Shown here in pieces: positions 9,018 to 29,353 of a DNA stretch of 38,465 nt; positions within the stretch are counted from its first letter, which is position 1, and every line of letters begins with the position of its first letter. The stretch lies in assembly GCA_043728975.1 (NCBI GenBank), contig JAYTMA010000027.1, positions 1-38,465 of the forward strand, written 5' to 3'. The translations under genes and the position numbers were made by a program. The notes under the pieces were generated by a model. It searched no databases, was not told the DNA's origin, and saw only the letters and a program-made list of their open reading frames with translations. The stretch comes from a bacterium (GTDB lineage Bacteria > Patescibacteriota > Minisyncoccia > Phycocordibacterales > UBA918).

Positions 9018-9090
9018 GCGCCTATAGCTCAGCCGGTAGAGCAGCTCCCTTTTAAGGAGAAGGTCCCAGGTTCGATCCCTGGTGGGCGCA
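9018..9090 (+). tRNA. tRNA-Lys (anticodon TTT), no encoded CCA
   Basis: The cloverleaf folds by hand: acceptor GCGCCTA/TGGGCGC, D arm GCTC-AGCCGGTA-GAGC, anticodon arm GCTCC-CTTTTAA-GGAGA, variable AGGTC, T arm CCAGG-TTCGATC-CCTGG, discriminator A. Confidence 0.9.
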
Positions 9091-26724: not shown

Positions 26725-26730
26725 TTGTCT

Positions 26731-26988
26731 ATGAACATTGCGTATACACCTCAATTTCTGCGCATGTTGAGAAAACTTGAACGCTCTCTCCAGGAAGAAG
26801 CGGTTGAGAAAATTGAATTGTTTGAAAATGATCCAACCCATTCACAACTTAAAACACACAAGCTCAAGGGAAAGTTAAAGAACCGGTATAGTTTCTCAGT
26901 GAATTACCAGACTCGTATCATCTATATGCATCTCTCTAAAAGTGACGTAGCCTTCCTTGCTATCGGAGATAATGATGTGTACAAATAG
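26731..26988 (+). CDS. RelE/ParE-superfamily toxin
   Basis: MNIAYTPQFLRMLRKLERSLQEEAVEKIELFENDP...LKGKLKNRYSFSVNYQTRIIYMHLSKSDVAFLAIGDNDVYK. The length and pattern are typical, and it is a paralogue of the split gene at 27407. Confidence 0.7.
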   Translation: MNIAYTPQFLRMLRKLERSLQEEAVEKIELFENDPTHSQLKTHKLKGKLKNRYSFSVNYQTRIIYMHLSKSDVAFLAIGDNDVYK

Positions 26989-27099
26989 TAAATTAACGAG
27001 TGAGATAAAATGTCCAAATATAAATACTCGTATCATCCAACCGCCCAAACACAGCTCCAAACCTCCTAAGCGACGTCGCCCCAAGATATAGACAACATA

Positions 27100-27123
27100 A
27101 TACCAAAGTATATACTTTGGTAT
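27100..27123. promoter_or_regulatory. Perfect 24-bp palindrome abutting the antitoxin start codon (candidate TA operator)
   Basis: ATACCAAAGTAT|ATACTTTGGTAT is exactly self-complementary and ends one base before the ATG at 27124. Its centre contains a TATATA -10-like element. Confidence 0.55.
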
Positions 27124-27405
27124 ATGAATACACATACTATTTTAAACATAAAAACCGATAAGAAACTTAAGGCAGATGCCCAGAAAGTTGCTGCTGAACT
27201 TGGTGTTCCACTCAGTACAGTCATGAATGCCTTTCTCAAACAATTTGTCCGCGATAAAGAAATCACACTTTCAGCCAATCAATATCTCCCCACTCCCTAC
27301 CTAGAAAGTATCCTCGAGCAGGCGCAGAAAGAATACGAAGCTGGTGATTATGTCGGACCCTTTAAAACCGGTGAAGATTTTATCGCTCACCTAAAGTCTC
27401 TTTAG
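27124..27405 (+). CDS. RelB/DinJ-family (RHH) antitoxin
   Basis: ILNIKTDKKLKADAQKVAAELGVPLSTVMNAFLKQFV is a DinJ-type ribbon-helix-helix. The toxin gene starts 1 nt after its stop. Confidence 0.75.
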   Translation: MNTHTILNIKTDKKLKADAQKVAAELGVPLSTVMNAFLKQFVRDKEITLSANQYLPTPYLESILEQAQKEYEAGDYVGPFKTGEDFIAHLKSL

Positions 27406-27406
27406 T

Positions 27407-27812
27407 ATGCGCTTCATTCTTTCGAAAAGATTTGCGAAAGACTTTACAAAACTGCCTACCCCAATCAAGAAGAAGGCAATTGCCACTTTTGAAAAATTTG
27501 TCGAAAACCCCCAAAATCCTACCCTGCGGAACCACGGTCTATCCGGAAAATGGAAAGGTCACTGCAGTATCAATATCACTGGTGACATTAGAGCAATTTA
27601 TTCCACGTAAATACCGACGTGGCGTAAGCCCGGGGATGTAGTGAGTTGCTCTATCGCAAAGCGATAGAGATTAAGCAACGAAGTTGCTTAACTAAAAGGC
27701 CATAGGCCGAATAGATACCCCGTCCCGTAAGGGCGGGGAGATTCATTTCGTTACTGAAGACAAAATGGTGCGATTTGTTGCAATTGGATCACACCGCGAA
27801 TTATATGGATAG
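27407..27812 (+). pseudogene. RelE/ParE-superfamily toxin gene split by a 145-nt insertion
   Basis: The 5' part (27407-27601) encodes MRFILSKRFAKDFTKLP...GHCSINITGDIRAIY and then hits TAA at 27608. The 3' part (27747-27812, frame +1) encodes FVTEDKMVRFVAIGSHRELYG*. The joined product aligns without gaps to the paralogue at 26731-26988. Confidence 0.65.
27602..27746 (+). mobile_element. 145-nt hairpin-dense insertion (candidate non-autonomous element with same-orientation subterminal hairpins)
   Basis: It contains the module copies 27610-27637 (AATACCGACGTGGCGTAAGCCCGGGGAT) and 27713-27740 (AGATACCCCGTCCCGTAAGGGCGGGGAG). It also contains perfect hairpins CTCTATCGC-AAA-GCGATAGAG (27649-69), TTAAGCAAC-GAA-GTTGCTTAA (27671-91) and GGCC-ATA-GGCC. 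The boundaries are ambiguous by 2 nt (AT). No transposase gene is present in the window. Confidence 0.45.
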
Positions 27813-27963
27813 AGACTAAGTTTCCTCATCAAAACAAATCCTCGCTTCACTTAACCACTCCATACACAAATCTTCAAACTGTTTCCACCGCACGGGTATT
27901 GGATTTTTACCTTCGTAAACTCATTAAAAATCTGGCCTGCCCCCAGGAACAGAACGTACCTTT

Positions 27964-28255: not shown

Positions 28256-29353
28256 TTAACGATTCATCGGCATTACCAAATAACGTAAGGTTTTATCTGA
28301 CACTCCGGTAATTACTAACGGTCGACCAATTCCAGCAAAATGCAAAACCACACTCTCATCAGTAATATGGGATAAAGGATCACTAATATACTGTTGGTTA
28401 AAATTTAAGGTTAATTCATCACCTTCAAATACCGCCGGGACCAAGTCGGTCACATGCCCCACTTCATTATTTTGGGAAGATAGAGAAATATTACCTTCAA
28501 GTACTGACAAAGTAACTTGCTGGTACTTATTTAAGAAGACGGAGGTTTTCTTAAGGGCTTTTAGAAGGTCATTTTTGAGCACAGTGGCGTGCGAACTGTA
28601 TTCTTTAGGAATTATCTGTTCGTAGTCAGGAAAAGAGCCTGAGACGAGCCTAGAGGTAATGTAGACCCCTTCCTCCTTAAACCATAGAGCGCATTGATTT
28701 TCAGTTACTAATAAATCAGGGTCGTTTTTGAGTAAATCACACAGTCTTGATAATTCAACGGCATTTTTTTGTGGGACCAAAAAACCTTGTTCTAAAATAA
28801 CTCCCTTTTGCGGCACGGTCTTTTCCATCAAACGAAAAGAGTCCGTGGAAACAAAGGTGAGGGAATGTTCTTTTTTTTGTTGAATATAAACACTACCTAA
28901 CTCTGGCTTAATGGAAGAGAGTGAAGCAGCAAAGGAAGAGGTTTTTATCCCCAACGAGAACAAGGCTCGATTAATTTTAATCACGTCACCTTTTAGGCGA
29001 TTAATTACTGGGAACTCATCATGAGGAATAGACTTAATCGAGGTGTTGGTTTTTTTTGACTCAATTAGCAACACCCCTTCTTCAGAACGTAGTGATATCT
29101 CTCCTTCGGTGTTGTATTGAATACTTTGCAGTAAAGTATTGGCTGGGACAGCAATTATTCCCGACTCGGTAACAGAACAAGGTAGCTCTATCTCAATACT
29201 TAATTCTAAATTAGTGGCTTTGAGAATTAGCTTTTCTTCTTTCGCTTCTAGTAAGACGCACTGTAAAACCGGTAGGGTTACATGCTTGGTGCTAATTCTT
29301 GTTAACAACTCAAGTGTTTCTGATAACTGTGGACGAGAAATGTTTATTTCCAT
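28256..29353 (-). CDS. dnaN: DNA polymerase III subunit beta (sliding clamp)
   Basis: 365 aa with three-domain clamp length and pattern (LPVLQCVLLEA, STDSFRL, YLVMPMN), located next to dnaA. Confidence 0.9.
   Translation of the reverse strand: MEINISRPQLSETLELLTRISTKHVTLPVLQCVLLEAKEEKLILKATNLELSIEIELPCSVTESGIIAVPANTLLQSIQYNTEGEISLRSEEGVLLIESKKTNTSIKSIPHDEFPVINRLKGDVIKINRALFSLGIKTSSFAASLSSIKPELGSVYIQQKKEHSLTFVSTDSFRLMEKTVPQKGVILEQGFLVPQKNAVELSRLCDLLKNDPDLLVTENQCALWFKEEGVYITSRLVSGSFPDYEQIIPKEYSSHATVLKNDLLKALKKTSVFLNKYQQVTLSVLEGNISLSSQNNEVGHVTDLVPAVFEGDELTLNFNQQYISDPLSHITDESVVLHFAGIGRPLVITGVSDKTLRYLVMPMNR

Follow-up and report, generated by a model that had tools for sequence, protein, structure and literature searches.

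Insertion sequences (ISs) of the IS200/IS605 family, such as IS608 and ISDra2, have at each end a subterminal imperfect palindrome that includes an extrahelical T and faces the same way as its counterpart. They lack inverted repeats, and they insert without duplicating their target, on the 3′ side of a short sequence similar to the final bases of the right end. In IS608, a T-N-A-N cleavage site is recognized by pairing with the 4 nt (the guide) directly 5′ of each hairpin foot: the first guide base pairs with the second base of the cleavage site, the second with the first, and the fourth with the fourth (PMC3201880). IS200 of Salmonella and other enterobacteria has tnpA, for a Y1 transposase, as its only gene, together with a structured left end and 5′ untranslated region (UTR), and its length of 707 bp has been cited as the lowest on record for a fully autonomous IS (PMC4513863). 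The palindrome-associated transposable elements (PATEs) of Haloquadratum walsbyi are too short to encode a transposase, have no inverted termini and cause no duplication, carry similar palindromes near their termini, and arose from IS605-type transposons by deletion of the core, including versions of roughly 50 bp that consist only of the termini (PMC3119063). Repetitive extragenic palindromic (REP) sequences and bacterial interspersed mosaic elements (BIMEs) are likewise short hairpin repeats, recognized by a REP-associated tyrosine transposase (RAYT), a Y1 HUH enzyme related to IS200 TnpA. REPs typically occur in inverted pairs that flank a single-copy RAYT gene. Here, we analyze a 145-nt insert in a YafQ/ParE-type toxin gene, located at 27602-27746 on the + strand of a 38,465-nt stretch of DNA from a member of the Patescibacteriota (contig JAYTMA010000027.1; hereafter, the window). 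[quoted passage not shown] An original prediction, made from the window alone, had proposed such a toxin-inactivating element, and this proposal is supported by an empty site, further copies, autonomous relatives, and the properties of the ends and the target.

The open reading frame (ORF) of the toxin starts at 27407 (+) and continues for 65 codons to ...GDIRAIY (27407-27601), after which it runs into TCC ACG TAA, with the stop codon at 27608-27610. The remaining 21 codons (FVTEDKMVRFVAIGSHRELYG, followed by the stop codon TAG at 27810-27812) resume at 27747-27812 in a frame that differs from that of the 5′ part. In silico deletion of 27602-27746 generates a single toxin ORF of 86 aa (given earlier as 87 aa, with the stop codon counted), which matches the Pfam families YafQ_toxin (38.2 bits) and ParE_toxin (37 bits), in both cases above the cut-off. 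As had been noticed from the sequence, the gene is split cleanly and the restored toxin aligns across the junction without gaps to a neighboring paralog (26725-26988; 28% identity, E 3e-12).

Comparison with other assemblies revealed both filled and empty alleles of this site. When contigs encoding the antitoxin and the truncated toxin were looked up, the insert was found in four independent assemblies (L002, L003, L006 and L007), the last of which stops 77 nt into the insert; two further contigs (L001 and L005) stop 25 nt into it. An empty-site allele, whose existence in relatives had been put forward as a check, is present in contig L004 of project BUSI22-1. This contig lacks exactly the 145 nt, has near-identical flanks, and encodes an intact toxin of 86 aa (L004:614-874). 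The 5′ part of the split gene differs from the intact gene by four single-nucleotide polymorphisms (SNPs) and is otherwise identical; I56V and I61T are the sole differences between the intact toxin and the restored window toxin. Apart from the 145 nt, the empty site (AATTTAT|TTCGTT) matches the filled one, with zero target duplication, and it also confirms the position at which the 3′ part of the gene resumes. The insertion site is thus polymorphic in the population, and the filled assemblies, which are independent of the window, together with the empty allele rule out the insert as an assembly artefact. Project BUSI22-1 is the source of the empty allele L004, the filled allele L007, and a full-length element (L063) described below.

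Some microdiversity was observed within the filled alleles: the right hairpin loop GTAA is changed to GCAA in L003 (10257-10737), and L007 (1646-1944) has an A-to-G change at window position 27670, just after the first internal hairpin. The Logan contigs L001 and L005, which come from different runs, both stop at window position 27626, and their last 31-mer begins one base before TTTAT. Such a shared stop is what one would see if the samples contained other copies identical in their first 25 nt; a SNP at 27627 would have an equivalent effect, and we place little weight on this observation. A tandem duplication was also considered as the origin of the insert, with a 13-nt repeat (GATAGAGATTAAG at 27663-27675 and GATAGAGACTAAG at 27808-27820, 12/13 identical) whose spacing of exactly 145 nt equals the insert length. 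Aligned in register, the 145-nt blocks are just 25% identical; this origin was rejected, and the spacing of the repeat is treated as a coincidence.

The ends of the insert are organized in the same way as those of IS608 and ISDra2. The target sequence TTTAT (27597-27601), which contains the left cleavage sequence TTAT (27598-27601) and was assigned from flank counts and the empty site, stays outside the element. The left guide AATA (27610-27613), which covaries with the target and follows the IS608 pairing rule (PMC3201880), lies immediately 5′ of the foot of the left imperfect palindrome, CCGACG-T-GGC-GTAA-GCC-CGGGG (27614-27635). As seen in family alignments A2 and A4, the lower stem of this palindrome is damaged. 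The conserved left-end motif ATGnAGTGAGTT (27636-27647), which is kept in all MITEs and full-length elements, follows. At the other end, the right guide GATA (27714-27717), which varies from element to element in step with the right cleavage site, precedes a canonical and stable right imperfect palindrome with a bulged T, CCCCG-T-CCC-GTAA-GGG-CGGGG (27718-27738; single-stranded DNA (ssDNA) fold -9.1 kcal/mol, z -3.0), whose sequence is identical to both palindromes of a multi-copy element found in L064-L070. The last bases of the element are the right cleavage tetranucleotide TCAT (27743-27746), the junction being set by the empty site. The distance between the left cleavage site and the hairpin foot is 12 nt here, compared with 19 nt in IS608 and ISDra2. 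These ends are common to MITEs and full-length elements elsewhere.

The palindromes lie within two direct modules of about 26 nt (ATACCGACGTGGCGTAAGCCCGGGGA at 27611-27636 and ATACC-CCGTCCCGTAAGGGCGGGGA at 27713-27739), and a search of the window allowing up to three mismatches found no further copy of the module. Both of the directly oriented end modules predicted earlier are real, but the hairpin of the left (5′) one is imperfect, having CCGACG where all relatives have CCCCG, a defect that the original prediction had missed; this change is common to all filled alleles. The family form of the subterminal hairpin is CCCCG-T-NNC-GTAA-GNN-CGGGG, with the bulged T as in IS608. In alignment A2 of 15 distinct left- and right-end sequences, 97.5% of the cells are paired, a value reached in 0/500 shuffles, and compensatory changes occur at three pairs. 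In addition, the GTG of motif ATGnAGTGAGTT (27641-27643) can pair with the CAC of TCCAC (27604-27606) to form a 3-bp helix that encloses the left guide and palindrome. This helix covaries as well, being CCC/GGG in L013 and CGC/GCG in L064-L070.

The presence of ATT at both boundaries of the insert (27600-27602 and 27745-27747) can be read as a 3-bp target duplication, as would be left by a classical cut-and-paste MITE with terminal inverted repeats that is mobilized by a DDE transposase. No terminal inverted repeats were found: when the first 35 nt were compared with the last 35 nt in reverse complement, the best local score was 5 (mean for shuffles, 5.3), and just 2/20 bases of the insert ends match tip to tip in inverted orientation. 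The ATT repeat follows from the likeness of the target, TTAT+T, to the right end, TCAT+T, a likeness also seen in other family members, whose flanks are unrelated; a target duplication was accordingly rejected. The full-length relatives encode a Y1 and not a DDE transposase, and a cut-and-paste origin has next to no probability.

The same left and right ends bracket Y1 transposase genes in metagenomes, which answers the earlier suggestion to search for a Y1 (HUH) transposase. A scan of metagenomes with the left-end pattern revealed 35 loci. At most of these, a tnpA reading frame, or the beginning of one, comes after the left end if the contig is long enough; complete tnpA genes of 146-147 aa are present in seven. 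The full-length relatives are 562-585 bp long, encode a Y1 HUH transposase of 146-148 aa, and have left and right ends as in the miniature element; what the window element and the TnpA-encoding elements have in common is the right end and, on the left, the stretch up to AGTGAGTT. They include elements of 562 bp (L063:2917-3478), 566 bp (L062:2918-3483), and 585 bp (L064-L070, at about 1416-2000 in each locus), the last in at least six identical copies at distinct sites. The L063 element comes from another metagenome of project BUSI22-1, which does not imply placement in the same genome. The TnpA proteins score 120-124 bits against NCBIfam transpos_IS200 (cut-off 55) and are also above the cut-off for Pfam Y1_Tnp. 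Their nearest solved structures are 2EC2, ISDra2 TnpA, and IS608 TnpA, to which they are homologous. A protein search at E <= 1e-30 yielded 748 clusters of the relatives' transposase, mostly on short contigs.

Regarding gene content, the window element is gene-less; the only two internal ORFs, which encode 26 and 31 aa on the minus strand, are too short for a transposase. Its parents would carry tnpA only, without tnpB, in 562-585 bp, in contrast to IS608 and ISDra2; most of the Haloquadratum parents, by comparison, carry an IS1341-type tnpB. The relatives resemble IS200 in having a single tnpA gene for a Y1 transposase, a structured left end and 5′ UTR, and a very small size, but they are 120-145 bp shorter than IS200 (707 bp, PMC4513863). 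The autonomous relatives therefore appear to be smaller than IS200, by the size figure in the literature.

The relationship between RAYTs and IS200 TnpA, both being Y1 HUH enzymes, and the resemblance of REPs to the subterminal hairpins of this IS family (PMC3333891) would also accommodate a REP/BIME-type repeat that is moved by a domesticated RAYT instead of an IS200-type transposase. The relatives' transposases do match NCBIfam REP_Tyr_transpos, at 21-32 bits; this is far under the cut-off of 80, and the same proteins exceed the transpos_IS200 cut-off more than twofold. Moreover, the transposase genes lie inside multi-copy 562-585-bp units that have the same directly oriented ends as the MITE and occupy many sites, and they are not single-copy genes with flanking inverted REPs. 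The modules of the window element, unlike those of REPs and BIMEs, are direct repeats that bound a mobile unit, and an origin from a domesticated RAYT is very unlikely.

Target choice provides a further line of evidence for an IS200-group element. Among the elements with guide AATA, the left flank ends with TTTAT in 21/25 distinct contexts, and eight more full-length copies likewise lie 3′ of TTTAT; among those with guide AATT, the left flank is TTTAA in 12/12. Insertion next to a short specific sequence without duplication, as originally expected, is thus borne out by TTTAT and the empty site. The target differs from the TTAC of IS608. It is also unlike the ISDra2 target, TTGAT. The guide and the cleavage site covary at the left end (AATA with TTAT, AATT with TTAA) and at the right end (GATA/TCAT, AATA/TTAT, CATA/TGAT and AATG/TTAC), with two exceptions, L021 and L026, in which AATA occurs with TCAT. 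The third guide base is an invariant A, which is the base left unpaired in the IS608 scheme (PMC3201880). To judge from these sequence comparisons, the covariation at both ends fits the scheme derived from the IS608 crystal structures.

Further copies, which had been sought as a test of the prediction, were found in metagenome-assembled genomes (MAGs) of Saccharibacteria and other bacteria, in metagenomes, and in one viral contig. A pattern derived from the shared part of both end modules was scanned against viral contigs and a genome collection. The genome collection gave 18 matches, about a dozen of which are genuine; the genuine miniatures are 41-145 nt long and have the same termini with differing flanks. 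They include two per genome in three Saccharibacteria MAGs. Identical 129-nt copies (L012 and L022) lie at separate loci of one Saccharibacteria MAG. Six of the 18 matches (L009, L010, L015, L018, L019 and L023) were discarded as chance matches, with contexts that have neither the TCCAC... tip nor the ...TT(T/C)AT end. Among the viral contigs, the module pattern detected one genuine copy (L008), and a stricter left-end pattern gave zero matches. Most of the copies other than that in the window are in intergenic or unrelated contexts. The nearest miniature relatives of the window element are in Saccharibacteria MAGs, and the family is bacterial, unlike the archaeal PATEs.

Two arrangements of copies were observed in addition. 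On the minus strand of L017 (1560-1600), a 41-nt element located after GTTTAT consists of the left tip, a single hairpin, and the right tip (TCCCCAACAATACCCCGTCTCGCAAGAGCGGGGAGCTTTAT). This element looks like the product of recombination between the directly repeated end modules and is comparable to the 52-bp terminal-only PATEs of Haloquadratum (PMC3119063). In L025 (2537-3255), a full IS200-type element of the same architecture, with the hairpin loop TCT, is followed by TTAT and then by a 144-nt miniature, an arrangement that from its sequence is apparently one element inserted right beside the end of another.

The interior of the window element contains three hairpins between the end modules, the two perfect 9-bp triloop hairpins and the GGCC-ATA-GGCC hairpin that had been recognized in the sequence, and each has a counterpart in the full-length elements. 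Hairpin 1 (27649-27669), a perfect 9-bp triloop hairpin with the sequence CTCTATCGC-AAA-GCGATAGAG, is the remnant of a long-range stem around tnpA, matching in position and architecture the stems of L051, L057, L033, L053, L062, L063 and L064 as well as hairpin 1 of other MITEs. In the full-length elements, the segment after the left-end motif AGTGAGTT, corresponding to the tnpA 5′ UTR, shows 16-19 bp of complementarity with the 3′ coding end of tnpA. The arms of this stem are CCAGTATCTTCATCACC / GGTGATGAAGATACTGG in L051, CCCGTATCGGACTCGCC / GGCGAGTCCGATACGGG in L062, and CCGTATCTTCTCTGCC / GGCAGAGAAGATACGG in L064. Across four elements, 98.5% of the cells are paired and 5/17 pairs are compensatory, compared with about 37% for slid controls; the arms were chosen by eye, which biases towards pairing but not towards covariation. 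The stem was seen in L051, L057, L033, L053, L032, L044, L062, L063 and L064, and its G-T pairs are confined to the top strand. A role in ssDNA, in synapsis of the ends, or in mRNA is possible.

Hairpin 2 (27671-27695) comprises the perfect 9-bp hairpin TTAAGCAAC-GAA-GTTGCTTAA (27671-27691) plus CTAA, and alignment A4 and the 3′ ends of the full-length elements indicate that it is the counterpart of a tnpA stop-codon hairpin. In the full-length elements, the tnpA reading frame closes with codons (GQTATLFD*) that fold into a 10-bp hairpin spanning the stop codon, GGTCAAACAGC-nnn-GCTGTTTGAC-TGA; relative to the family consensus of alignment A4, three pairs of hairpin 2 are changed on both sides with the pairing kept. 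Hairpin 3 (GGCC-ATA-GGCC, 27698-27708) takes the place of a sequence-variable hairpin between the tnpA stop codon and the right end, with comparable hairpins in L053, L032, L057, L014 and L064. The internal hairpins thus trace to structures of the parent element, and therefore the new class of small structured insertions, which the original prediction had offered as an alternative, is unneeded; judged by these alignments, the hairpin-dense core is a scaffold inherited from the parent. Unlike in PATEs, the core deletion spared the three internal hairpins. A description of the covarying long-range stem and the stop-codon hairpin was not found for IS200, or elsewhere in the IS200-family literature reviewed.

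The dense structure of the insert also bears on whether it acts at the RNA level, as a tiny self-splicing intron or ribozyme or by programmed translational bypass, so that the toxin would still be made. The RNA fold of the insert is strong (-58.3 kcal/mol, z -6.0 for the + strand against shuffles; z -4.6 for the - strand), the loops of the end hairpins are of the GNRA type (GTAA; GCAA in L003), and matched ATT codons 145 nt apart (27596-27598 and 27741-27743) are possible take-off and landing sites. The structure is, however, equally strong as ssDNA on either strand (-33.5 kcal/mol; z -6.6 and -6.75 on the two strands). A whole-window Rfam search at gathering thresholds detected only a tRNA (9018-9090), and 27400-27950 searched at E <=10 gave only chance-like sub-threshold matches, the best with E 0.14. 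The stop codon lies three codons past the putative take-off codon instead of adjacent to it. The T4 gene 60 bypass gap is 50 nt, and a 145-nt bypass would be about three times as long. In addition, the ends, the hairpins, and the ATT/TTAT repeats are explained by homology to IS200-type ends that bracket a transposase elsewhere, and the location of most other copies in intergenic or unrelated contexts also speaks against a function in the toxin mRNA. It is highly improbable that the insert works at the RNA level.

As an IS200-group derivative, the window element would have retained from its parent, at the left, the 12-nt tip including the guide AATA, the subterminal hairpin, and motif ATGnAGTGAGTT; inside, both arms of the tnpA-bracketing stem, the tnpA stop-codon hairpin, and the spacer hairpin; and at the right, the guide GATA, the subterminal hairpin, and ...TCAT. 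A full-length relative would supply the Y1 HUH transposase in trans, and the top strand would be excised as a single-stranded circle carrying the right end-left end junction ...GGGGAGATTCAT|TCCACGTAAATACC... This circle would be pasted 3′ of TTTAT in single-stranded target DNA without duplicating any bases, the target being picked, as in IS608, by pairing with the 4-nt guide beside the left hairpin. In the present case, the landing site was after codon 65 of the YafQ/ParE-type toxin gene. This single-strand peel-and-paste chemistry is proposed by homology to IS608 and ISDra2. The top strand of the element is the non-template strand of the toxin gene, and transcription could expose it. Beyond mobility itself, the long-range stem, the stop-codon hairpin, and the CAC/GTG helix all covary in the autonomous elements and are retained in the gene-less miniatures. 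It is conceivable, although on balance doubtful, that the three together form a cis-acting single-strand scaffold joining both ends for the transposase.

Several points weigh against the assignment to a mobile IS200-group derivative. A second copy with the internal hairpin sequences of the window element itself was not found in the scans. As had been stated for the window, neither tnpA nor tnpB is present within its 38 kb, according to the ORF list and a Y1 motif regular expression, and a trans-acting transposase in this genome is hypothetical. The left palindrome folds as ssDNA with only -4.3 kcal/mol (z -0.6), compared with -9.1 for the canonical hairpin, and in the ssDNA fold of the whole element it is displaced by a competing hairpin, CCACGT/ACGTGG (27603-27608 with 27617-27622). 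With a weakened left hairpin and this competitor, the window copy may be immobile; an impairment of excision, as these folds predict, would fit the persistence of the insert across samples. The boundary of the insert is ambiguous by up to 3 nt because ATT recurs at 27600-27602 and 27745-27747, and the exact cleavage point is ambiguous by 1-3 nt, all left ends and all right flanks beginning with T. This T was counted in 23/23 right flanks and likewise in all of the listed left ends; it points either to a preference for TTAT with a T after it or to cleavage that truly occurs one base further 3′.

The orientation of the element is a final point of this kind. The cumulative GC skew has its minimum near 29 kb, and dnaN (28256-29353) and dnaA are on the minus strand to the right of the element. 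The element is 0.5 kb from dnaN and close to the likely origin of replication. The usual bias of the IS200/IS605 family places the top strand on the lagging-strand template (PMC5027513). If oriC is located beyond dnaA, as the GC skew suggests, the top strand would be on the leading-strand template, opposite to this bias, although a single copy carries small weight.

Regarding the operon that received the insert, a RelB-type antitoxin gene of 93 aa (27124-27405, +; Pfam RelB 26.4 bits, above the cut-off) is located directly upstream of the split toxin gene and is intact in the ORF list. A perfect 24-nt palindrome, ATACCAAAGTATATACTTTGGTAT, at 27100-27123 overlaps 27089-27116, the most promoter-like site 5′ of the antitoxin gene, and is likely the operator of the toxin-antitoxin operon. 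The paralog at 26725-26988 (+) belongs to the RelE/ParE superfamily, with weak matches to HigB, YafQ and ParE-like Pfam families that are all below the cut-offs; it lies outside the element and is mentioned only as context. From the reading frame, the interrupted toxin is predicted to end after 67 aa, without its last 21 residues, next to an intact antitoxin gene, and toxin activity was presumably lost through the insert.

The insert accounts for a pseudogene: of the two RelE/ParE-type toxin genes that lie side by side near dnaN and dnaA, one has been knocked out. Interruption of a toxin gene by a gene-less IS200-group element is an ordinary event of a kind already known, and the findings overturn nothing in current understanding; the small autonomous relatives and the covarying stem are of interest to transposon specialists. 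For annotation, the results define a repeat family with known ends, target, and structure that is present in Saccharibacteria and other uncultured bacteria and that breaks short-read assemblies. The family also constitutes a natural covariation test of the guide/cleavage-site rule of IS608, and the conserved long-range stem has a possible role in end synapsis or tnpA expression. If the tentatively proposed scaffold were needed in cis, this would be a requirement undescribed for IS608, ISDra2 or IS200, and it could help explain how the autonomous elements manage with only 562-585 bp, less than the 707 bp of IS200. In that case, the window element would come near the minimal substrate, consisting of two ends plus the scaffold.

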